64,000 nucleotides of DNA from Candidatus Bathyarchaeota archaeon (GTDB taxonomy: Archaea > Thermoproteota > Bathyarchaeia > Bathyarchaeales > Bathycorpusculaceae), in contig OY969706.1 in the NCBI GenBank assembly GCA_963702095.1, positions 2,873,367 through 2,937,366 on the forward strand, in the 5' to 3' direction. A model generated the notes under the pieces. It was not told the DNA's origin, ran no database searches, and was given only the letters and a program-made list of their open reading frames with translations. The position numbers were made by a program, and so were the translations under genes. Below are positions 7,300-43,272 of the stretch, one piece after another (positions within the stretch are counted from its first letter, which is position 1; each line of letters opens with the position of its first letter).

Positions 7300-7433
7300 G
7301 GTTTGTTTTTCTTTAGTTGTTGTTGACGAAAACCCTCTATACACAACAACAACCAGCAGGCTGCCCTACAAGTTGCTTTTTGTTTAGTGCCAAAGCCTCT
7401 GGCTGCAGGCTGGTTGTGGAGCAAACCTCAAGC
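7300..7433. repeat. Dispersed ~134-bp palindromic repeat, copy A
   Basis: Matches 23338-23472: TTAGTTGTTGTTG-N18-CAACAACAACC at left and TGCAGGCTGGTTGTGGAGCAAACCwCAAGC at right. Confidence 0.8.
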
Positions 7434-9286: not shown

Positions 9287-12113
9287 TTACCATACCAAAT
9301 TGTAGTATGCAGTTAGTATTTTGGGGGAAGTGACGGGTATTGATTGACCGTTGTAGTAGTAATTTCCATTTTGGTCTATGAAACAGCTAAAGACAGCATA
9401 CATGGTAGGCATGCCCGGAAGCTGAAATGAATTTGTGACGGTCACTATATGGCTGCCAGAAGTTACGGCGATACTAATAGGGGCTGTTCCAACCGGATTT
9501 GGATTGTCAACCCAAACATAAGGATTCAGTTGAATCCAGCCACCGAGAGTAGCCTGTACGCTTAATGTGTTCCCGATAGTTACATATGTTGAGCTGTCAC
9601 GGGTTAACCCAGTACTGCTATGTGCCCTAGCTGTAACCGTATAAACGTTTGGTGAGGTATACGTGTGAGTAGTTGCTGGCGTCCAACCCGAATCGTCGCC
9701 GTAATTAAACTCAAAACTTAAGCTATGGCCACAGGGGTCTATAGAAGGAGATGCTGAGAATTGGTATTCATGGTATGTAACGCCGGGATAAGGTACGTTG
9801 TGACTTATGGATGGTGTGCTAATGTAATCGGGGCTGCCTAGATCTTAGGCGTATGTTACCATTTCCATAAACAGCCATTCTGCTTGCTATTCTTGTCCCG
9901 TTGATGCTGTCCAGATATGGCCAATGTGCGACAAATCCAACACAGAGGGCCGTATCTCTAAACAGTTGAGTGTTAAAGCAATCCTGTGAGGCAGAATTTA
10001 AGGCCGAATTCACCGTTTCGTGACAATCAAGGGCATGGTAATAGAAAGCATGAACAAAGTCGTAGTAGGTTGCAGTTGTATTAGACCAAAAGTTGTCTAT
10101 CGGTAATGCTAGAGCTGGAGAACCCCAAGGAAAGCCGATGTAACAATATCCGCTAGTCTCGTCTGGATTTTTATAGCCCTCGTTAGGTATACCTGTTGCG
10201 TTATGAGTCCAAGCATAAGGCATACCTATAGGTGCACCAGAATTCGGGTAAGGATTTGCACCATATTGTCCGTTGCCGATAAGGTGTGGCGGTGGCTCGT
10301 TCGGAGGAGGATCAAGATTTTGTAGATCGGTCTTACCTGACATGCATGCACTTATGAATGAGAAGTAGTTGTTGCTTGTTGAAGTTGCGGCATATATTTG
10401 GTAGTCAAACACATCATTGATTGGATCATTCTCGCCTGCTGTAGCCCCGCAGAGCATAAAGTGAAACTCGGTCGGATAGTTTTGCCAGTTTGGTATCTGT
10501 AGGTTTTGACTCAGCGGTGGTTGACTTACATTATTTGGTAATCCTATTCCGTGGTCAAACCAGATTGTAGCAGTACCTATATGGGTTTGTTCGTGGGATT
10601 GGGTGGATGATAAAACAGCACTTGGGGTAGTACCGCTTGAGGGTTGATGGTTATAGTGGTCATATCCATGATTATAGAACCTGCTATCAATGTATGCACT
10701 AAGGTCACGTTGAGCGTCAATTTCTCCTTGTGTATGAGGGTTAGGATATGAAGGTGAGATCGCTGGGTGCGTGTCAGCCCATATATCAACACTTCCGTCC
10801 GTTGCACTAGCTGTCGCGGCTGTTGATGCTAAAGCTAATATTGCCGCTATGAATAGCAAAAGGCAAAACGCTAATCCGCTGCTTTTACGCATTTTGGGTA
10901 TAGTTAAAGAATGACGAAGCCAAGGTTTCTCTTGAGTCAACAAGAACAGAATAGCGATAACTATAAACGTCATCGAAACGGCTGGTATCCATATGTCTGA
11001 AAAACCGTTCGCCGTACTGGATACTTGAATGTCCATCTTAGAGCTTTCAGCGATTGTAGCGACCTTTGCGTTTGCTGGCAGAGGTAAAGTGGAATATACT
11101 TCCTGTCTGTCTCTGACTTGTCCAGTATCAGCCCAGACACCTACATGAATTCCGTAAACTTTTCCGGGGTAATACTTGTCTAAGCCAACTCCGATACTCC
11201 AAATTGGATATAGTGTTAAGGGATTGCTGTTTCGTGCATTAGAAGCATTGCCTGCTTTTTCGAAGAATAGGTTAGCAACGATCGGTTCTGTTACGTTAAA
11301 ATTATTGATTAAAGATTGTTGGCTATCCGTGCCCACTTTCCAAGAGAAGGTTTTCGCATTTTGTATAGCTATGGCTTCGGCTTGGTGTTTAGAAAGCTTT
11401 ACAGTAGTGCTACCTATCGGGTATAGATTCCAATTATCAATGAAACCTTTTAAGAAGCCATCCTTGTAACTCAAGGATACGCATTTACAATCAGCGTCAA
11501 TTCCATCGGACGTGTATGACCAAGTAAACGTTGTGATGTTATCTATGGTTGAATTGCCTGTAAGTGCTTCAATTTTAAAGTGCATGTTGCCAATAGTAGT
11601 TGTTGAATTCTTGGTCGCGTCAATCCCCTTCAATGTTGAGACAAGTTGACCATAGAATGGGTCTGCTGAATATTCTTGATAGTTAAGTAGGAAAAATATA
11701 GCCTTCTGGACTGACATCACTGATATTAAGGATTCGTCAAATGTTGAAGCAACTTTTGATGGTAACGCCTGTATCTTATCCCAGCGAGAGTCTTCAAGTA
11801 CACTCATAATCTGCAATGATCCCTGGGTAAAAGTTGCTTGAATTTCTGCAGTGTCTCCAAGACAAAAAAGGCTATAACGAACATTTTCTGTTGGCAAAAT
11901 TCCCAGATATGTATCGCTTGGGTTTACGGTTGTAATGGCATTATATTGTGTTAGGTTAAAGCCAGCCACTTTATCAATCATGCTCAGCCCTTTTTCTACA
12001 GAATCTGTTGGTTTTGCTTGCGCGCTTGGCGTAATGGTATAGATACTAGAAATCGCCAGAATTATTAAGCAAATTGTTAGGAGTAAAAGCTTTCGCCTAA
12101 AATTCCTTACCAT
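9287..12113 (-). CDS. Large secreted/membrane protein with putative clan-CD-like peptidase domain and PKD domain; frameshift near 9832
   Basis: ORF 9819-12113 plus an open frame 9829-9287 encoding FNYGDDSGWTPATTHTYTSPNVYTVT (PKD-like); SD GGAG upstream. Confidence 0.65.
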
Positions 12114-12528
12114 TTTTTATTTTCTCCTTTTTTTATATGTGCAGCTCTTATCTTCTTTACCGCCTTACCAGTAGGTTGTATTTACTTATCAAATATTACA
12201 TATTTGATTATTTAAAAACGAAACTAAGATTTGCGCAAAAATGGGTGAAAAATGTCATTTTATAAAAATATGGTGATTAAATTAGTCGAATAGTTGCGAT
12301 TCTATTACTACTTTTTAACATTTTTATGCATGATTTTATGAAAAGAGTCCTGTAGAGCGTCTTGTATCAGCCAAGAGGCTTGATAAATCTAATCAGCGGA
12401 GATGGTTCCATTAGCTGTTCCTGAAGTTTTGAGCAAATACATGCGGCTACAGAGAGAAAATAGCCAAGAAACGCTAAAAGTTTTAATATGGGCTTGAGAA
12501 TCTTCTGGGTCGTCTCGGAGAAATAAGT

Positions 12529-23337: not shown

Positions 23338-23472
23338 GGTTGGTTTTTTCGTTAGTTGTTGTTGGCATAAACCGCCTATACTCAACAACAACCTGCGGGT
23401 TTTGAGGCAGCGCCTGTTTTGAGGGCGGGTTGTAGGGTGGATTGCAGGCTGGTTGTGGAGCAAACCACAAGC
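23338..23472. repeat. Dispersed ~135-bp palindromic repeat, copy B
   Basis: Matches 7300-7433 at both arms. Confidence 0.8.
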
Positions 23473-30193: not shown

Positions 30194-30422
30194 CTGACAA
30201 CCGATTTTTGCCTGGATTGTTGCTTCATGACGCATTTTAAAGTGAAAGCTTAATTCCTTGCTGCCTTAGATGGAAACCGATAAACCACCAAACTGAGTTC
30301 TTGCTTACTGTCGTCTTTTTCGCTTAAGTATCTAGCTTACCTGTCAGCAACTCAACTTACGACTAGCCTTTAAATCCCATTTCAGTCGCATTGTCGTCTT
30401 ACATATAATGGAGAAAATAAAA

Positions 30423-33126
30423 ATGCAAACAAAATTTAACTCAAAAACTACCGTAATTGCAATGCTAGCTTTACTGATGATTTCTATGTTACCCTTTGCT
30501 TTCGCTCAGGTTCCTGTTCCGGCTGATTCCCATGTGCCATCATATCCATACCTTAACGTTGCCCCTAACCCCGCAGGCGTTGGCCAAACAGTCACCCTCA
30601 ACATGTTCCTTGCCGTACCACAACTAAGCAGCGAACCCGCAACGAACTTCACCATAATAGAAACAACACCCCACGGAGAGACTAAGACTTTAGGCCCATT
30701 CAAATCTGATGCCACCGGCGGCACCTACACAACAATCGTTCCCGATACAACCGGCAACTACACGTTCCAATTCTTCTACGGCGGACAAACCCTAACCGGC
30801 GTCGCGGAACAAGGTGCAAGCTCCCGATCACAGTATGCAGGCGTCATCGTTGACCCAAGCCACACTGATGTAAAAACACTCGTTGTACAGGAAGAAGCTA
30901 TACCATCCAGTTCATACCCTATAACTCCGCTGCCAAACAACTACTGGGAAACACCAATTACCGCTGAGAACGTTCAAAACTGGTACGCTATTGGCGGACC
31001 TTGGCTCGGATACGGCTCAGTTACTTTCGCTTCAACTGGCGGCTATAACGCTACTGGCAACTACAACCCATACACCCAATCTGTGATGTCTGGCCACGTT
31101 CTCTGGACAAAAGTCTGGGCAAGCGGCGGCGCAACAGGCGGCGACCTCGGCGGAACTGAGAGCAGCAACTACTGGTCAACTTCACAGTACTGGCCAAAGT
31201 ACGCACCAGTTATCATGAACGGCATAATGTACTCCACCCATTACACTGAAACTACAGGATACTCAGCAGGCATTGATGCAGTCAACTTATACACTGGAGA
31301 AACGTTGTGGACCATAAACACTACTAGCATACTGCGCGGCGGCATGAATGTTCAATGGAAAACACTAAACGCCTACGGTGCAATCGGACCATACATTTGG
31401 ACCACTGGCAATCTACCTGCATCTGACACTGGCGGAACAGCATATAATACCATACCTCGTTCAACACAATTCAACATGTACTCAGCCTTAACCGGACAGT
31501 ACGTGGAGAGTGTTGTTAACGGAACTAACCCAACCTTTACCACTGACGAAAACGGCAACATGATCGGCTACTATATCAACAGCACAGTCGGCACAATGAA
31601 CACCTGGGGACCAGTCGAAGTAGACGGCACCCAACACTCCAGAGGCGCAGTAGCCATCACTGCAACTCAACCTGTCTTATGCTGCTTTAACATGTCGCAG
31701 GCAATTAGCATCATTAATCCAACTACACAAGCTCGCAGCAACAGTTGGGGCTGGGCTCCAGCACTAAACACTGCAATCGACTTCGGCCGCGGTGTTATGT
31801 GGGCAGTACCAGTGTTCAACAACATCTCAGACGCAATAATCAGTCCAGCACTTGCAATCAACGGCATAACTGACAACGCAGTAGTCCTGACTGGAGGTTT
31901 CACCGTCGGACAAGGCTCCGGAGGAGAAACAAACGGCTGGCTAGTTGTTGGCGCACAAGATGCAACCACAGGCGCACAATTATGGTGCAAGAACTTCACC
32001 TCCCAAGACACATCAACTTTGCTGCCCTTCACAAGAACACAAATGCAAATCCAAGACGGATACTGGATTAACGCTAACATGTACAACTGGGATATCGTTG
32101 CCATTAACGCACGCTCAGGCACTCAAGCATGGACCGCAAACCTCGCAGGCGACAACGGTGCAGAACCAAACCACTACGACATATTCAACCTCAAAACCTG
32201 GAATGGCCCCGGCATAATCTACTTTGAAGGCTTCGGTGGAGACATCTGGGCTTTCGACTCAAGCAACGGACACCAATTATGGTACACTAATACAACCAAA
32301 CTCTTCGGTGACCCAGGAACAGAAACTCCCTATGGCATATGGCCACTATGGGTGTTTAACTGCGCATGTGCATCCAACGATGTATCATACTGGGCTGTTG
32401 GCCACGAATACAACCCACCGCTATTCCACGGCGCACAACTATTCGGATTAAACAACACTGACGGCTCACTAGTTTGGAGCACACTCGACATGTCCGTGAC
32501 TTCCACATCAATCGCATACGGAGTCATGCTATCACTCAACGCATATGACAACCAACTCTACGCTTTCGGCAGAGGACCAAGCGCTATGACAGTCGATGCT
32601 CCTAGTGTCGGTGTTTCCACAGCTACTCCAATAGTTATCTCAGGTACAATCACTGATGTCTCTGCAGGCGCTTCTCAGAGTGTAGTCGCTAAGAACTTCC
32701 CCAACGGTTTGCCATGTGTCTCAGATGAGAGTCAGAGCCACTTTATGGAAGCCGTGTACCAGCAGCAGCCAATGCCATACGACACTACCGGTGTTCCAGT
32801 TACCATAAACGTCGTTGACAGCAACGGAAACTATCGTGAAATCGGCCAAACCACTTCAGTCGACGGAACATTCGCCTACACTTGGACTCCTGACATTCCA
32901 GGCAGCTATGAAGTCGTTGCTAGCTTTGCAGGTTCCAACTCGTACTATCCATCCTCAGCTATTGGCGCACTTCTATGCCAGTGATGCAGTAACACCGCAA
33001 CCGACAACTGAGGGCGCAACGGGCTTTGCTACTACTAGTGACTTGATGATGTATATTGCAGCAGCAGTCGTTGCTATCATTATTGCAGTTGCAGTCGCTA
33101 CAGTGCTTATCTTAAGAAAACACTAA
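30423..33126 (+). CDS. Large PQQ-like beta-propeller surface protein 1 (frameshift near 32965 separates the TM anchor)
   Basis: SD GGAG 30410, signal peptide, PNPAGVGQ, TPLPNNYW, HVLWTK, PCVSDESQ, WTPDIPG; ORF 32815-33126 supplies HFYASD...TM-RKH. Confidence 0.85.
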
Positions 33127-33142
33127 ACAGTAAACAAACAAT

Positions 33143-33162
33143 CTTTCCCTTTTCCTTTTTTT
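33143..33162 (+). terminator. Pyrimidine/T-rich archaeal terminator
   Basis: CTTTCCCTTTTCCTTTTTTT just after stop 33126; similar tracts follow the other two paralogues (39380-39396, 42641-42653). Confidence 0.6.
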
Positions 33163-33185: not shown

Positions 33186-33287
33186 GGGCTGAGTGGGCTC
33201 TGGAATAAAACTAACATAGTCGCGGATAAGAATGGTTACGTGCATTTCCATTCTTTTCTCCCTAAGCTTTCCAGAGCCCCAGCAAAC
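33186..33287 (+). ncRNA. Candidate structured ncRNA, copy 1
   Basis: GCTG-AGT-GGGCTCTGGAA pairs with TTCCAGAGCCC-CAGC; inner AAGAATGG/CCATTCTT; homologous to 39427 and 42717; strand inferred. Confidence 0.65.
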
Positions 33288-33423
33288 TCATTGCAAGAAA
33301 TGTTTAAGCTAAACTTGCTTTTCAGCTAAGAGTATTATACCTTCATATAGAAAAGACTTAAAAACGATCACTCTCAAAATATGTAAACTTCACATTCGGG
33401 ATACTGCTCAAGGAGAGAGACTA

Positions 33424-33882
33424 ATGAACGAAAAAAAACTATCTTTAATGCTGCTGCTTATTTTAATAACGGTTGCTCTAACCCTATCCTTAACCGCTTA
33501 CGCAGCCACACAAACTACGCTTTCTGCGAGCGTTCCCTCTTCAGGAGCGATTAAAAAAAGCGTAAATCTTGAACTCTACACCGATAGCGCTTGCAAAAAC
33601 GTCCTCAACAACATCGCCTGGGGCGACTTTACCCCCGGTTCAAATGCAACTCAAACAATCTACATAAAAAATACTGGTAGTCATGCTTTTTTAACGTTAA
33701 CTATGTCTACTTATGATTGGACTCCACGGAGTACTAATGCGGTAATTACTGTATCGTGGAACCAAGAAGGCACAAGACTATCTCCCGGACAAGTAGTTGC
33801 GGCTGTAATTACCACATCGGTTTCCTCAAACATCATGGATACTTCAGACTTCAGTTTTATACTATGCATAAACGGTGCCTAA
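33424..33882 (+). CDS. Small secreted protein
   Basis: N-terminal hydrophobic helix; YTDSAC...I.WG...PG...YIKNTG. Confidence 0.75.
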   Translation: MNEKKLSLMLLLILITVALTLSLTAYAATQTTLSASVPSSGAIKKSVNLELYTDSACKNVLNNIAWGDFTPGSNATQTIYIKNTGSHAFLTLTMSTYDWTPRSTNAVITVSWNQEGTRLSPGQVVAAVITTSVSSNIMDTSDFSFILCINGA

Positions 33883-34228
33883 ACAGCCTTCATAGTCAGG
33901 ATGTTTAATTAGTTTCACAGGTGACAAATCCCTGTTAACACTCGGGGTTATCCCGACCTGACTGAAGTCCACTGCACAATATCAACAAACAATCGACTAG
34001 TCTTTTATGGCTTCTATGAAGTTAAAGTGGCAAAATCTCCCGCTTCCCCTTTTTTCGTATTAGTTATCAGTAACCTATCATTCGGGGGAACATGCCCTAT
34101 TTTGTGATGTCACCCGCATACCTTCTCTTTATTAATGCTTAACAAGATAGTTTAGAAATTTTTCAAGAGCCTCAGCAAACCCTTTGGCTAAAATGCTATA
34201 TACTAGCTGGGTTTAAAAGGGCAAGATA

Positions 34229-36851: not shown

Positions 36852-39366
36852 ATGTTATCAACTCTACCTATAAGATCCGACAAAAAAAGCAGAACTGACA
36901 ATTTACACAAGCTCTCAGTGACCACGTTAATTCTATTATTAAGCGTCTCTATGCCTAGCGATGATGCCGATCAGTAATGCTACAGATTATACATCATCTT
37001 ACCCATCGTACACGTACATAGATGTCGAGCCAAAACTAGTAGGTGTCGGCCAGACTCTTACCGTCGCTTACTGGCTTGCAGATGCACCGCCATCGCCTTT
37101 TAGATACGAAGGAATTACAATAGTTGTAACTAAACCTGACAATTCAACCGAAAAAATATCAACTACACAAACAGACACCGTTGGCGCAGGCTACATACAA
37201 TATACACCTAAAACAACCGGCACCTACACATTCAAAGCAATCTTCCCCGGACAAGAAATGAACATAACCACAACCACATACAGCCTCCCACCCGGTTTTT
37301 ACTACTTTGAACCATCCGAAAGCAGCACAAGATCAGCGACAGTACAAGAAGACCAAGTTCAATCAAGCCCAGAAACACCCCTTCCATCAAACTACTGGAC
37401 AAACCCAATTAGTGCCGAAAACAGGGCCTGGTCACAAATATCCGGCGACTGGCTCCAAGCGCCATTCATGCCTGGCTCATCAAATTTCAACCTTTACACT
37501 GCAGCTCCGGACTCAGCACACATAATGTGGACGAAATCAGTAACTCAAGGCGGAATAGCAGACGGATCATTAGGCTGGGGCGAAGCTTACTACACCGGAA
37601 TTCCCTATGAAAACCCCTTAAGCCCCCCAGTGATCATAAGCGGACGACTATACTACAATGAATTTTCATCGAACTCGCTAACCGGCGTTATATGCGTAGA
37701 CCTAAGAACAGGAGAAGAAATATGGCGAAACGATTCTATGCCTCGAATATCGCGCGGCCAAGTGTTCAATTTCGACGGAGATAGCCACCACGGCGCTTCG
37801 GCATACTTATGGAGCGTAGGTACAACCAGTTGGCAATTGTCTGATGCCTTCTCAGGGAGACAACTAGCCACTTTAGTAAACACCACTTCACAGACGGCAT
37901 CATACGGTGCCATATCTGCTGGATCAGGAACCTTTGCATATGGTCCAAATGGAGAACTACTGATGTACATTCTTGATGGTCAAAACGACAGACTAACCAT
38001 GTGGAATTCGACGTTAGTTTTCTACACTGATGCCTCAAACTGGCGTATCTATGGAACATATGACTGGACCAAAGGAATACAATGGAGCGTAACCATACCT
38101 CATGTGACTGGACAAACGTTAAGCCACCTTGACTATAATACCGGAGTGATACTTGCCGAATCATCAGTTGCTTCCCCAACTTTCACACACATAGGATACA
38201 GTACGGAAACAGGTGAACGCATATGGATTCAAAACAGGACAGGATATGATTACGGCTTTGGCGGACCAGACATACCTGGACTCCTAACAAATTTTGCTCC
38301 ATGCCACACACTAGCTGACGGAGTATACGTCGTCTTCCACAAGCAAACTGCAACGTTCGTAGCCTTCGACGCCAAAACTGGAAACTACCTCTGGACCACA
38401 GATTCTCTGATGGAATATACCGACAGTGACTACACATCGTACGATTGGTCTCCAAAAATTGCATACGGAACCCTTTACGTTACAGGATTCAGTGGCAGTG
38501 TATATGCATTTAACCTTACAACTGGAGCGAATATATGGAGCTTTAATCAACCAAGCAGCGGATTCGATACACCTTACGGAAGCTGGAACTGCATTGACGG
38601 AGTCATGATAGCCGACAATAAAGTATATGTACCCTGCATGGAACACACACCCGCGCCGCCCTATTACAAAGGTTACAAAATATGGTGTTTAGACGCTGGA
38701 ACTGGTGATTATCTATGGTCTCAAAATGGATTATTCACCTCGATAGGAGTATCAAATGGCTACTTGATCGGAGTAAACGGCTATGATAACCAAATCTACT
38801 GCTTCGGAAAAGGACCTTCTGCTATCACAGTTAATGCTCCTAGCGTGGGAGTGGCAACTTCTACACCAATAACTATCTCAGGCACTATTACGGATATTTC
38901 TGGTGGGACTTCTCAAGACAGAATAGCCAAAAACTTCCCAAATGGACTACCATGCGTATCTGACGACAGCCAAAGCGAATGGATGGCATCCATCTACCAA
39001 CAACAATCAATGCCAACAAACGTAACCGGTGTTCCAGTTGAACTCAGTGTTATAGACTCCAACGGCAACTATAGACAAATCGGTGCTACGACAAGCGACG
39101 CCAGCGGCACGTTTGCATTCAATTGGACCCCTGATATATCTGGCAATTACACTTTGATCGCCAACTTTGCAGGCTCAAACTCGTATTATTCGTCCACCGC
39201 TGTAGCACACTTCTATGCTGGCGAAGCAGCAACTCCAGCACCAACAGCACTGCCTTTACAACCAGTTGACAATACCATGCCTATCTTAGGTTCCACAGTA
39301 GCAATAATCATCGCAATCGCCATCGTCGGCATAGTCCTTGCAACAATCGTCAAAAAACGACCATAA
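36852..39366 (+). CDS. Large PQQ-like beta-propeller surface protein 2 (frameshift near 36955 within the signal peptide)
   Basis: ATG 36852 starts a signal peptide continuing into ORF 36961-39366; VGVGQ, TPLPSNYW, HIMWTK, PCVSDDSQ, WTPDISG, TM-KKRP. Confidence 0.85.
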
Positions 39367-39426
39367 GCACAAAAAACAATTTTCCCTTTCTTTTTTGGGA
39401 TCAATAAATGCATTGGAAAAAACTGT

Positions 39427-39533
39427 GGGCTGAGTGGGCCCTGGATAGAAGAATAGCCAGTCGCGGTTGAAGGATGGTTTAGTTGCATTTTCCATTCTTT
39501 TCTCCTTAAAGTTGTTCCAGAGCCCCAGCAAAC
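39427..39533 (+). ncRNA. Candidate structured ncRNA, copy 2
   Basis: GGGCTGAGTGGGCCCTGGA...GTCGCGG..AAGGATGG..TTGCATTTTCCATTCTTTTCTCC...TCCAGAGCCCCAGCAAAC. Confidence 0.65.
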
Positions 39534-39912
39534 CCTCATTGTTTAAATTCAGATGGTGCATGTTACTCGAGCTTTAGGCTTTTTCTTTGGGTTTTTTGGG
39601 TTTGGTTCGGATTTTTTTGTGGATCTTGGATAAAGCGGTTGAATGTTGCTGAGAGATGGGCAAGCGCGCTCGGAACCGCACGCTCATGTCTTGTATAGGC
39701 ATTCAAACCTATGCAATTCATGAAATCAAGGATTTGTTCGTATTCTTAGATATTGTAGGCCTTTTCCTTCAATTTTAATAGAAATTCCTTTTGGTCGCGC
39801 AGTAGATGCAACTTTTTGTGCACTCACGACAGGTGAGTAAGTTTTATTAGTGTTAGCTCCGAGATAGAGAAATCTGCCTTAAAAAGGCATATACTCAAAG
39901 GGAAAATGAAAA

Positions 39913-42617
39913 ATGAAAAATGAAGAAAACAAATTACGAACATTATTTGCTATATTCTTGATGCTTTCAATTTCAGCTTCAATGATACTATCGACACCTG
40001 TAAATGCAGTAACATTACCTATGGGTGGTTCATTGCCGGAAGGAACTGTAATTCCAAGCTATCTCTACCTTAGCATTGCTCCGAATCCTGCCGGTGTTGG
40101 TCAAACAGTCTTCGTCAACTGCTTCTTGGGAGCGACGTTAATAGACGGTGAGGCACCTGTAAACATGAGTGTCCAAATCACGTTTCCAAATGGCAACACT
40201 CAGACACAACCCATAAAAGCGGACCAAACTGGCGGAGGATACTTCAACTTTGTTCCAGCCTCAGTTGGCACATATAAATTCCAAGGCTTCTACGAAGGAC
40301 AACCATATGCAACGCCAGCCTATGTAGGTCTTATAGAGGGTCCTAGCCAAACAGATGTTGTTTCGCTTACAGTACAGGAAGAGCAAGTAACTCAACGTGC
40401 CTACCCACTCACACCGCTGCCTACAAACTATTGGGAGACTCCGGTATCAGCTCAGAATACGCAGTATTGGTACTCAATCATGGGGCCAACCATATTTCCA
40501 GCCAAATACAACACTACTACATCTTGCAATCCCTACACTCAATCGGTACTTTCAGGCCACGTTCTTTGGACGAAACCCTGGGGTACGGGTGGTGTAGTTG
40601 GTGGCGACGCAGGCCATCAGAAACTACTGGACAGTACTGGACAGCAAGGCAATACAAAAACCAATTTAGTCCAATCATTATTAGCGGCAAATTGTATGCT
40701 CAATATTACCCAGAAACCACCTCATACTCAAATGGCATTGTCTGCGTAGACTTATACACTGGGCAAACTTTGTTTACGATAAATACCACTTCCACATTGA
40801 TGTGCGGCATGGTAACCCAATATCAGACGCTTAACGATTACGGCGCTATCGGTCCGTACATTATTACTTCTGGATCTCTGAGTCCGGACGAAACTGGCGG
40901 AAAACTTGTCTATAGCAAAGGATCACAATTCAACATATATTCTGCTACAACTGGAAAGTACGTCATGAGCATCGTTAACGGTACAAACCTGAGTGGATTG
41001 CACGCGGATACCTCTGGGCACCTCATTGGTTACTACATAAACAGCACCGTTGGCACTATGTCTCTCTGGAACCCATCATCGTGGAATTCAATGCCTCCTC
41101 CTCCTATGGGTCCTGCGCAGGGTCCGCAGTATCCAACCCTTAAATCCACTGTAAACATCACTGCTGGTAATCCTTTACTGTGCATGTTCAACCTTACACA
41201 AGCCCTATGGGACGTTCCCGGCAATAACTGGGAGTGGGGACCAGCTGAGAATACTGTCATTGACTTTGGCTTAGGAGTCATGTGGACAGCCCCAGTACCT
41301 ACAACCGTTAACGGCGTACCCATAACTCCATCTCTTAGCCTTAGTACTTATACAGGCAACGAGATAATGCTCACTTCAATGCTGTGGCCAATCTTCTTCG
41401 TCCAAAGCGGATGGGAGGTACTGGCTGCAATGGATGCAAATACTGGTGCAGTCAAATGGGTGAAGAACTTTTCATATCCCGAAATCCAAGCGCTACAGCC
41501 TTTTACACGCTTTACTCAAGGCGGAATGTACTGTGATGGAAACTATATGTGGTATAACCTCCACAACAACGTAATCACTGCAATCGATTGCGCCACTGGC
41601 AACCTAGCATGGACAAGCAGCGTCAAAACACCTTACGGTGATGGACAGCCAAACTACTACAATGAATTAGCAGCCAGCATTCCCACGAACCTAAACGGTA
41701 ATGGCAGGTTTGTCATTATGGGTTTTGGCGGTGACATCTGGAGCGTGAACGCAACGAATGGAAGCACAATCTGGTATACGAATACTACAACACTGCTGGG
41801 TGATCCTGGCCTTGAAACGCCTTACGGCATCTGGCCCTTATGGACTTTTGGCGGTTCTCAATGCATGAGCAACGACGTACTCTATGTTGCTGTTGGACAC
41901 GCTTATAACCCACCGATGTTCCACGGCGCACAGTTATTAGCCATAAACATGACCAACGGACAACTAGTTTGGAGTGAACTGGACTTTCCAGTTATAAATC
42001 AACAAATCGCATACGGCATTCTAACATCGCTGAATTGTTATGACAACCAAGTGTACGCTTTTGGCAGGGGACCAACTGCAACGACCATTAATTCCCCCAA
42101 CATTGGAGTGACGATCGATACGCCGATAACGATTACAGGTACTGTGATGGATGTTTCAGCTGGCATTGCGCAGTCTGAGGTTGCGAAGAACTTCCCGAAT
42201 GGTCTTCCATGCGTTTCTGACGAGAGCCAAAGCAAGTGGATGGAACACGTCTACCAGGACCAACCTTGCCCAGCCAACGTCACAGGAGTTGAGGTCACGC
42301 TGAGCGTTCTCGATTCTAACGGCAACTACAGAGGCATCGGCACAACTACAACTTCTGCAACGGGCGTCTACACGTTCTCTTGGACACCTGATATTCCGGG
42401 AACATACTCTCTCTATGCAAGCTTCGACGGCTCTAACTCTTACTATGGTTCATCAGCCGAAACCGCTTTCACCGCTACAGAAGTTATAGTGGCGCCTTCT
42501 CCCGCATATCCGCAGCCTGTTGACACTATAAACTTGCAATATGGCATACTTGGCGGCGTTGTCGCTTCAATCGTCATTGGGTTAGCTGCGCTTTTCCTTA
42601 GCCTCAAAAAGAAGTAA
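39913..42617 (+). CDS. Large PQQ-like beta-propeller surface protein 3 (frameshift near 40615)
   Basis: ORFs 39913-40749 and 40431-42617 join at GGDAG/PSETTG; same conserved blocks as paralogues 1 and 2; TM-KKK end. Confidence 0.85.
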
Positions 42618-42716
42618 GCACAAAGGAAACTAAATCCAACTTTCCCCTTTTTTAGTTAAAAAAATAAAACAAGTCCATAAAATAGAAGTGACAAAAATCC
42701 AGATAGAAAAACAGAA

Positions 42717-42820
42717 GGGCTGAGTGGGCTTTGGATGAAGTTAACCGGTCGCGGTTGAAGGATGGTTTAGTTGCATTTTCCATTCTTTTCTCCTTTAATT
42801 GTTCCAGAGCCACAGCAAAC
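42717..42820 (+). ncRNA. Candidate structured ncRNA, copy 3
   Basis: GGGCTGAGTGGGCTTTGGA...GTCGCGG..AAGGATGG..TTGCATTTTCCATTCTTTTCTCC...TCCAGAGCCACAGCAAAC. Confidence 0.65.
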
Positions 42821-42975
42821 CTTTACTCTGTAAGCTATCGAGTGAGCGCAAATTTTATTTCCTTGAACAGTCATAAGACATAATGTTGTCTTGTTTTGTG
42901 TTGTCTTGAGTGTTATCTCGCTTTGTTGTCTTTTTTCCATGTTGTTGGAGTATAAACCTGTAGGCGTTCGTACTC

Positions 42976-43272
42976 TTGGGTGAACCTGAAGCTAAAACCA
43001 AAAAGAAACCATCATCAAACCGCTCGGCAAAAGAGCGCAGAAACACCCTATTTCGCGTTTTAGACGGCGTATTGAGCCTGTCCCACCAAAAAATTCATGC
43101 AGGCGGTAACAGCGACAAAGCTAAGCAAGGTTGGGCGAGAGTTTTAGTTTCAGCAGTCTCAGCCTACGGTCCCTTGCTAAAAGACGAGGAGTTGGAGCTT
43201 CGGGTGTTAACACTAGAGGAGAAGCTCAAAAACAGCATACTAATACCAAAACCCGAGGATAAAAAGAAATGA
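42976..43272 (+). CDS. Small hypothetical viral-type protein
   Basis: 98 aa with C-terminal coiled coil DEELELRVLTLEEKL; 4-nt overlap with next ORF. Confidence 0.6.
   Translation: MGEPEAKTKKKPSSNRSAKERRNTLFRVLDGVLSLSHQKIHAGGNSDKAKQGWARVLVSAVSAYGPLLKDEELELRVLTLEEKLKNSILIPKPEDKKK

Follow-up and report, generated by a model that had tools for sequence, protein, structure and literature searches.

The three copies of an approximately 100-nt repeat found in a 64,000-nt stretch of Candidatus Bathyarchaeota archaeon DNA (GenBank assembly GCA_963702095.1, contig OY969706.1, positions 2,873,367 to 2,937,366; the whole stretch is referred to below as the window) belong to a group of elements that follow the genes of one family of surface proteins and carry, in inverted orientation, the translation start region of these same genes. 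Element and gene start change together from lineage to lineage. We suggest that the element acts as an RNA made from the sense strand, in which a stem-clamped loop displays an antisense version of the family start region and, by occluding the Shine-Dalgarno (SD) sequence and the AUG, lowers translation of the family. We regard this proposal, which is built on sequence comparison, as evenly balanced between right and wrong.

A conserved element behind the genes of one surface-protein family

The source genome consists of one contig of 2.94 Mb with a G+C content of 46.8%. The 19-nt pattern of the 5' arm of the element was found at 21 sites in this genome (0 in the control), and motif and profile searches identified approximately 25 full copies of the ~100-nt repeat, with 33 nhmmer hits at E<0.01. 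The alignment of the copies is sharply delimited by GGGCTGAG on the 5' side and CAGCAAACC on the 3' side. Twenty of the 25 copies are located 30-60 nt past the stop codon of a surface-protein paralogue or of a remnant of one. The proteins of this family, which are membrane-anchored and contain a PQQ propeller, have a C-terminus composed of a linker, a membrane helix and the sequence RK(R/K/H)(P/A), and the stop codon is separated from the element by a T-tract of the TTTCCCTTTTTTTGGG type. By phmmer, 47 open reading frame (ORF) pieces of the family were recognized in the source genome, many of them being fragments of frameshifted genes.

The distribution of the element was determined in samples of related genomes with a covariance model (CM), R1, which was built from 40 copies with the outer stem as its sole structure and whose E-values are rough. 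With the source genome counted, the element was detected in 99 of 120 genomes of the genus, including 59 of the 73 high-quality ones, and the matches numbered more than 800. In a sample drawn evenly from the whole order it was present in 39 of 151 genomes, representing 8 of 63 genera, and in one genus belonging to another family 17 of 19 genomes had it. A set containing a single copy from each of 37 other genomes (the one-per-genome set) was used to look at gene association elsewhere. The ORF upstream of the element encoded the family membrane-anchor tail in 27 of these 37 cases, in a further four the tail was recognized by eye in another frame, and a run of at least five T preceded the element in 31. 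Because of this placement behind family genes across genomes, the element is a fixture of the 3' flank of the surface-protein family and not a randomly scattered mobile repeat; the same counts speak against a miniature inverted-repeat transposable element or other mobile repeat inserted at unrelated sites. Integron attC sites are imperfect palindromes behind diverse cassettes, arrayed beside an integrase and bordered by conserved core sites; the element, for which no integrase was sought, would differ from them in following one gene family.

No Rfam family (release 15) was found at the gathering score for the three window copies. When four loci from four genomes (three genera) were scanned against Rfam at E<=1, the sole match was to a plant microRNA model (E=0.18, 24.9 bits versus a gathering score of 100).

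Outer stem, probable RNA strand and the mirrored start region

The outer stem, P1, consists of 4 bp, a 3-nt bulge (AGU or AGA) and 9-10 bp, and encloses a loop of 60-80 nt. In a plain MAFFT alignment of 40 sequences (A4) P1 is 95% paired, whereas controls slid along the alignment pair in 26-48% of the cells. Five of the pairs are altered on both sides, and the covariation score was reached by 0 of 500 shuffles. RNAalifold predicted the same 13 pairs unaided from the 37 one-per-genome copies, with the pair next to the bulge being A-U in 23, G-C in 7 and G-U in 7 of them; the alignment of these copies (A5) was fitted to the model, so the counts lean toward the stem. The ratio of G·U/U·G to A·C/C·A cells in P1 is 24:1 in the one-per-genome set and 20:14 in a set dominated by source-genome copies. 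The element thus combines the features of a structured RNA, namely a conserved secondary structure, compensatory changes and strand-specific wobble pairs. Since G·U pairs outnumber A·C pairs in P1, the structured molecule is most likely an RNA with the polarity of the gene upstream. The preliminary description of this DNA had named exclusive minus-strand transcription as fatal to an antisense role; this is not favoured, since the wobble asymmetry of P1 points to the plus strand. A search for RNA sequencing runs over 36900-43000 of the window listed none.

P1 and the 3' tail CAGCAAACC are near-invariant in sequence as well as in pairing in several families of the order (e.g. 39427-39445 and 39516-39534 in the window), which hints at a protein-binding or processing site. 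Readings of P1 as a kink-turn, a C/D-box or an H/ACA RNA were dropped after informal inspection by eye, the defining boxes or G·A pairs being absent.

The interior of P1 is variable. Its small hairpins differ among lineages, and what persists is a U/C-rich stretch ending in CUCC together with an upstream CAU; of the 37 one-per-genome copies, 35 contain CTCC and 34 contain CAT. Read on the reverse-complement strand, these motifs amount to an ATG placed 5-14 nt after a GGAG in 67 of 77 copies, with spacers of mostly 6-7 or 9-10 nt, and in the remaining 10 copies the ATG is absent within the stretch examined. The anti-SD part is predicted to be largely accessible, with a mean unpaired probability of 0.76 and values above 0.5 in 31 of 39 copies.

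To relate these motifs to the genes of the source genome, 23 hand-curated family start regions were compared with 2657 other ORF-derived genes, each of which was assigned the start with the best SD, a conservative choice. The family consensus in this genome is AAAGGAGAAWAAAAA-ATG-(C/A)AA. An exact complement of at least 8 nt to the inner arm of the element occurred in 14 of the 23 family starts versus 154 of the 2657 others. Mononucleotide-shuffled queries matched on average 5.3 of the 23 family starts, and 14 was reached by 4 of 200 shuffles. These counts bear out the idea, put forward in the preliminary description, that the inner arm is antisense to the SD/AUG region of the surface-protein family, and the enrichment over shuffled controls that it called for is present. 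A general start style of the secretome was ruled out, as signal-peptide-like N-termini were found in 20 of the 62 best non-family matches versus 901 of the 2657 other genes; these best non-family matches are a mixed set of genes.

Family genes and elements from four other lineages were then included, with 59 loci parsed, 30 start regions accepted and 53 elements parsed; L121, L125, L132, L143, L159 and L171 (not family N-termini), ORFs shorter than 800 codons and unparsable loci were left out. In genome G040 the family starts contain GAAGGTGAAAAAATGAAAAAA or GAAGGAATAAAAAATG and the elements carry the exact reverse complement. In full, these starts read GAAGGTGAAAAA-ATG-AAAAAA or GAAGGAATAAAAA-ATG, and the reverse complements in the elements are GAAGGTGAAAAAATGAAAAAACC or GAAGGAATGAAAAAATGAAAAAACC. 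In G211, a member of the same genus as G040, GGAGAAAAAAA is common to starts and elements, and in the g18 genomes CTAAAGGAGAATAGAAGAAT is shared in the same way. AUGAAR starts are accompanied by UUUCAU elements in G248, and the AUGCAA found in part of the source-genome starts by UUGCAU elements. After removal of row and column effects (double-centring), the excess of complementarity within a lineage was +0.9 nt of exact match and -2.1 kcal/mol, and 0 of 2000 label permutations reached it, although starts of the same lineage are paralogues and not independent, and the label-permutation test overstates their independence. The co-variation of loop and targets across genomes, which had been proposed as a check, was thus observed: the mirror in the element tracks the local family starts.

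Searches with lineage-specific 20-mers showed how closely these sequences are confined to the two places. The G040 20-mer, with up to 3 mismatches, gave 18 hits (5 in the control), of which 9 were in elements, all in mirror orientation, 4 in family starts and 5 elsewhere. In three g18 genomes the corresponding 20-mer gave 16 hits (1 in the control), comprising 11 element mirrors, 1 exact family start and 4 unclassified sites. In G040 and g18 the identity between start and element mirror extends over 20-22 nt, and gene starts in these genomes do not generally follow the pattern of the lineage 20-mers. When 917 own-lineage pairs of start and element were examined, complementarity was located at approximately -17 to +7 around the start codon and was seen in about 1% of the pairs elsewhere in the interval from -45 to +45; the -17 to +7 footprint corresponds to the SD, the spacer and the start codon. 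Pure chance is excluded because of the lineage-specific 20-mers, and these together with the footprint rule out chance or low complexity as the whole story. The preliminary description had cautioned that low complexity makes chance matches plausible. The pair that it described, between the element and the start of paralogue 1 in the window, is only moderately above chance (its longest exact complement, 9 nt, is equalled by 62 of the 2657 non-family genes); the family as a whole is above chance.

Within the source genome, both elements and family starts fall into a GGAG class and a GGAAG/GGAA class, the elements having CUCC or CUUCC, respectively (examples are L030, L035 and L037, at genome positions 1297692, 2283217 and 2291494). 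Overall, the classes of elements and starts are not matched gene by gene.

Further GGAG and ATG motifs were noticed in the leader between the T-tract and P1. In the 30 nt ahead of P1 (e.g. 39397-39426; L084-L107) a sense GGAG, often as GCAATGGAGAAAAGAA, is present in 20 of 37 one-per-genome copies versus 1 of 21 source-genome copies, and an ATG ends 0-2 nt ahead of P1 in 11 of 37 and 8 of 21 copies, respectively. The leader GGAG motifs are not colinear with the antisense part; they might belong to a promoter, act as a decoy that pairs with the anti-SD (forming a pseudoknot) or be a relic.

Proposed function and competing explanations

According to the proposal, each window copy would be a member of a conserved structured RNA module of ~100 nt, located on the sense strand directly 3' of the family genes. 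The sequence-conserved P1 would clamp a 60-80 nt loop containing variable small hairpins and a pyrimidine-rich stretch, the latter being the reverse complement of the family SD, spacer, AUG and the next few bases. This stretch may pair with the start regions of family mRNAs in competition with the 3' end of 16S rRNA and the 30S subunit, and translation of the whole family would be lowered as a form of negative feedback or dosage control. Two routes can be envisaged. In cis, the 3' part of a transcript that has read through the T-tract would pair back onto its own 5' region; in trans, the agent would be a small RNA (sRNA), either released or transcribed on its own. Transcription of the element, pairing in vivo and translational repression are all steps that we infer from the sequences. 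A further-reaching version of the proposal, which we hold tentatively and judge somewhat more likely to fail than to hold, is that each expansion of the family carried its own antisense regulator, a clamped loop imitating the anti-SD of 16S rRNA plus an anti-start codon and co-evolving with the family ribosome-binding sites. The ~25 genes per genome would then form one translational feedback network, possibly switched by terminator read-through. If true, this would be a system of co-evolving start-site and anti-start-site modules of a kind not described in archaea or bacteria.

Several observations, besides the relatedness of same-lineage starts mentioned above, weigh against the proposal. The gene starts used in the comparison were called by our own simple rules. 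By energy, the enrichment in the source genome is moderate, with RNAduplex medians of -13.9 kcal/mol for family and -10.5 kcal/mol for other starts (area under the curve 0.21). The window's own pairs, whose sequence complementarity is present as first described, are ordinary when judged by hybridization energy: the start of paralogue 1 gave -16.5 kcal/mol with copy 2, and 423 of the 2657 other genes were as good or better; the values were -9.6 (1965 of 2657) for paralogue 2, -14.2 (806 of 2657) for paralogue 3 and -15.1 (630 of 2657) for the non-family gene starting at 12113. CTCC is kept in only 12 of 21 source-genome copies, and the anti-AUG is predicted to be unpaired with a probability of 0.52, no higher than average for the interior (0.51). 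In the source genome, six full-length family genes have no element downstream. Moreover, a T6-T7 tract lies between gene and element, and a T-tract is the usual archaeal terminator; because of this terminator-like sequence, co-transcription with the gene needs read-through. A/T-rich (TATA-like) boxes are found in the leader between the T-tract and P1, and an own promoter for the element is possible, but the distance from the T-run to P1 varies between 18 and 38 nt, so that a promoter-like spacing is not fixed. Finally, a run of at least five T within 30 nt downstream of the element is present in only 9 of 37 one-per-genome copies and in 0 of 21 copies of the source genome.

The pairing also lacks specificity for the gene next to which the element stands. 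The duplex energies with the own gene and with sister genes were, respectively, -14.5 and -14.5 kcal/mol in the source genome (17 pairs), -17.8 and -18.3 in G248 (8 pairs), -18.4 and -18.5 in G040 (11 pairs) and -21.0 and -21.5 in g18 (7 pairs), and in the pooled data of these four lineages 1351 of 2000 permutations reached the observed value. Equal pairing with own and sister starts neither proves action in trans nor excludes action in cis.

Among the alternatives, we consider it unlikely that the element is a structured RNA of the sense strand that serves some other purpose, for instance as a 3'-end stabilizer, back-up terminator, site of processing or protein binding, or signal that localizes the mRNA at the membrane, and that its likeness to start regions is a by-product of a U/C-rich single strand. 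The conservation of P1 in sequence and pairing across the families of the order, as is often seen with protein-binding or processing sites, and the location of the element after the terminator of surface-protein genes are consistent with such a role. The duplex energies with start regions are not extreme, and shuffled U/C-rich queries do match the purine-rich family starts to some extent, as the above mean of 5.3 in 23 indicates. Composition, however, cannot account for a lineage-specific identity of 20-22 nt that includes the spacer and the AUG, and this alternative leaves unexplained why an ATG is kept 5-14 nt after a GGAG in 67 of 77 copies and why the footprint is confined to -17 to +7.

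The arrangement of GGAG, 5-14 nt and ATG resembles a real start region, and its SD type follows the lineage, as would be expected if the minus strand were the functional one, with a ribosome-binding site and a start codon that really serve a short ORF of unconstrained sequence, or with an antisense transcript that extends into the 3' end of the surface-protein gene. We find this improbable. The ORFs behind the mirror ATG range from 1 to 96 codons, are spread over all three frames relative to P1 and in one case consist of ATG-TAA, and the indels among copies are not multiples of three. A minus-strand gene for a small protein was ruled out on this ground, as no conserved ORF follows the SD/ATG. 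In addition, the wobble pairs of P1 are 24:1 in favour of the plus strand, conservation ends sharply at CAGCAAACC, so that a conserved minus-strand promoter is not seen, and the G040 20-mer occurs almost nowhere but in family starts and elements, and is not a genome-wide start style.

A site acting at the DNA level is in our estimate similarly improbable. It could be an operator present at both gene ends and bound by a DNA-binding protein specific to the family, or a pair of inverted recombination or inversion sites, with P1 forming a DNA cruciform or hairpin. In favour of such a site, family genes have the same 20-22 nt at both ends, in inverted orientation at the 3' end; a bulged, imperfect palindrome, the element, is located 3' of each gene; and frameshifts interrupt many members of the family, a trait also seen in some variable surface-gene systems. 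On the other hand, what is conserved is a set of translation signals (SD, spacer length and AUG), which is atypical for an operator, and the orientation is always inverted. The asymmetry of G·U versus A·C and the exchanges between G-C and A-U fit a single-stranded RNA made from one strand. An inverted gene between its two sites was not seen in the loci examined, in which no systematic search for inversion was made.

The least probable alternative, and to us a very improbable one, is the mutually exclusive expression suggested in the preliminary description, in which the RNA of an expressed locus silences its sisters but not itself so that one surface protein is made at a time: start-region complementarity is indeed family-wide and the paralogues are many, some in tandem arrays, but because own and sister starts pair equally well the expressed locus would silence itself as much as its sisters and no mechanism of self-escape is visible, the antisense part is near-identical among the elements of one genome, and six paralogues have no element.

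We propose that the element, as a sense-strand antisense module, represents a known kind of regulation, antisense control of translation initiation. The nearest archaeal analogue is sRNA41 of Methanosarcina mazei, a trans-acting archaeal sRNA proposed to repress the translation of related mRNAs by masking their ribosome-binding sites; it is encoded by a single intergenic sRNA gene and acts on sites inside polycistronic mRNAs (PMC5867862). Like sRNA41 as described there, the element is complementary to the ribosome-binding sites of its putative targets. Unlike sRNA41, it is a predicted RNA, is present in many copies (~25 per genome), is attached to the 3' end of the genes that it mirrors and has a conserved stem as its clamp; its complementarity includes the AUG, and it co-varies with its putative targets across genera.

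For action from the 3' to the 5' end, the nearest analogue is the tac/fbi fold-back of hok mRNA, in which pairing of the 3' fbi with the 5' tac prevents translation of the full-length mRNA, with an anti-SD as part of the mechanism. In that system a box distinct from fbi and tac, located upstream, sequesters the SD, the gene encodes a bacterial toxin of a type I toxin-antitoxin system, and 3' processing activates the mRNA (PMC9841398). The element resembles hok, in the account given by that source, in being complementary to a 5' region and in lying 3' of the gene, on the same strand and 30-60 nt past the stop codon. It differs in that it is itself the complement of SD and AUG, that the genes encode surface proteins, that it has no specificity for its own gene and that a terminator-like T-tract stands between gene and element. 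Four features set the element apart from both systems as these are described: multiple copies at the 3' ends of genes, coverage of the AUG, co-variation with its presumed targets across genera and the absence of own-gene specificity.

Regulatory sRNAs derived from 3'-untranslated regions (3'-UTRs) are known in bacteria, and a functional 5'-3' UTR interaction has been reported for haloarchaeal mRNAs. The element would resemble these cases in placing a regulatory RNA at the 3' end of a gene and in the cross-talk between 3' end and translation initiation. They concern single genes or sRNAs, and to our knowledge none of them involves a repeated module that was duplicated along with a family of paralogues and is complementary to the starts of that family. 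Literature searches returned no paper on sRNAs or RNA regulation in Bathyarchaeia and, among the papers listed, nothing relevant on non-coding or structured RNA of Bathyarchaeota; judged by titles and the openings of abstracts, none of the listed papers on archaeal anti-SD sequences, UTRs and sRNAs describes such an element.

For the Bathyarchaeia, archaea that are abundant and uncultured, a conserved RNA motif present in several hundred copies across ~100 genomes and tied to one family of cell-surface proteins provides a testable handle on the control of their surface, and can serve as an annotation marker for the 3' ends of family genes, frameshifted members included. If the pairing is real, the regulator would be duplicated together with its target gene and would track the ribosome-binding site of the target through evolution, and archaea would have a parallel to the anti-SD sRNAs of bacteria and to control by 5'-3' fold-back.

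The element copies and family genes of the window

The features of the window are listed in Table 1. All sequences quoted in the preliminary description were found where it had placed them. The start region of paralogue 1 has the layout GGAGAAAA-TA-AAAATGCAA, and its complementarity of 8 + 9 nt to TTGCATTTT-CCATTC-TTTTCTCC in copies 2 and 3 was reproduced, the two helices being separated by an internal loop of 6 versus 2 nt. The mirror start region TTGCATTTTCCATTCTTTTCTCC occurs in the window exactly twice, at 39483-39505 and 42771-42793 (0 expected from 100 shuffles), and its reverse complement is GGAGAAAA-GAATGG-AAAATGCAA. A second in-frame ATG for paralogue 1 is located upstream, at 30408. 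Paralogues 2 and 3 have, as reported, A-rich starts (AAAAAGGAAAAAACAAAAATG and AAAGGGAAAATGAAAAATG, respectively) with weaker matches. The 11-nt complement between copy 3 and the start upstream of the large secreted gene (12120-12130, minus strand) was also confirmed; in this gene, 9819-12113, AAAGGAGAAAA stands 6 nt ahead of the ATG.

In the minimum-energy folds of copies 2 and 3, TTGCATTTT lies in the apical loop of the hairpin AAGGATGG/CCATTCTT. The claim that the anti-AUG part is in an apical loop holds for the clade of the source genome; in other lineages anti-AUG and anti-SD are contiguous, and the predicted accessibility of the anti-AUG is average.

Table 1. Positions of element copies, family genes and start regions (window coordinates; the last row gives coordinates of the source genome)
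Feature	Position	Strand	Remarks
Start region of a non-family, secreted-looking gene (9819-12113)	12111-12130	-	AAAGGAGAAAATAAAAAATG; 11-nt complement to anti-SD
Paralogue 1	30408-33126	+	PQQ_2 beta-propeller and Big_3_5 surface protein; ORFs, Pfam
Start region of paralogue 1	30410-30428	+	GGAGAAAATAAAAATGCAA; SD-like GGAGAAAA at 30410-30417, spacer, ATG at 30423, then CAA
T7 tract between stop of paralogue 1 and element copy 1	33156-33162	+	Resembles archaeal terminator
Element copy 1	33186-33288	+	Outer stem arms GGGCTGAGTGGGCTCTGGA, TCCAGAGCCCCAGC; CM score 88.6 bits
Mirror start region of copy 1	33240-33261	+	GTGCATTTCCATTCTTTTCTCC; slightly different from copies 2 and 3
Paralogue 2	36853-39366	+	Start region AAAAAGGAAAAAACAAAAATG at 36853; ORFs, Pfam
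T6 tract past stop codon of paralogue 2	39391-39396	+	
Element copy 2	39427-39534	+	CM score 103.5 bits
Copy 2, P1 5' arm	39427-39445	+	
Copy 2, inner hairpin	39470-39477 / 39492-39499	+	
Copy 2, loop	39478-39491	+	Contains TTGCATTTT
Copy 2, anti-SD	39498-39505	+	TTTTCTCC
Copy 2, P1 3' arm	39516-39529	+	
Copy 2, tail	39530-39534	+	AAACC
Paralogue 3	39913-42617	+	Start region AAAGGGAAAATGAAAAATG at 39913; ORFs, Pfam
T6 tract past stop codon of paralogue 3	42648-42653	+	
Element copy 3	42717-42821	+	Mirror start region TTGCATTTTCCATTCTTTTCTCC at 42771-42793; CM score 100.6 bits
Full-length family genes without element	317565-320201, 1409729-1407030, 1460395-1457690, 1720210-1717556, 2054272-2051702, 2393736-2391112		Source genome (G000); family-type start and T-tract kept

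All three paralogues of the window are frameshifted. The main frame of paralogue 1 encodes 858 residues and ends at 32984, with Pfam matches to PQQ_2 and Ig-like domains, and its C-terminal membrane anchor (ORF 32815-33126) is out of frame with 30408-32984. In paralogue 2 the signal peptide is encoded by an ORF (36853-36976) whose frame differs from that of the main ORF (36961-39366), and paralogue 3 is divided into two ORFs, 39913-40749 and 40431-42617. Assembly error, pseudogenes and phase variation are possible causes.

Two further repeats were noticed. At 34159-34193, downstream of a small secreted-looking gene (33424-33882), a 35-nt stretch has 71% identity to the 3' arm and tail of the element (…AGAGCCTCAGCAAACCC…); it gave no nhmmer match at E<=1 and may be the relic of a fourth copy. 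An unrelated intergenic repeat is present in two copies, 7306-7360 / 23345-23399 (84% identity) and 7404-7433 / 23443-23472 (97%). Both pairs are 16039 nt apart, and an inverted repeat, GTTGTTGTTG...CAACAACAAC, is included.

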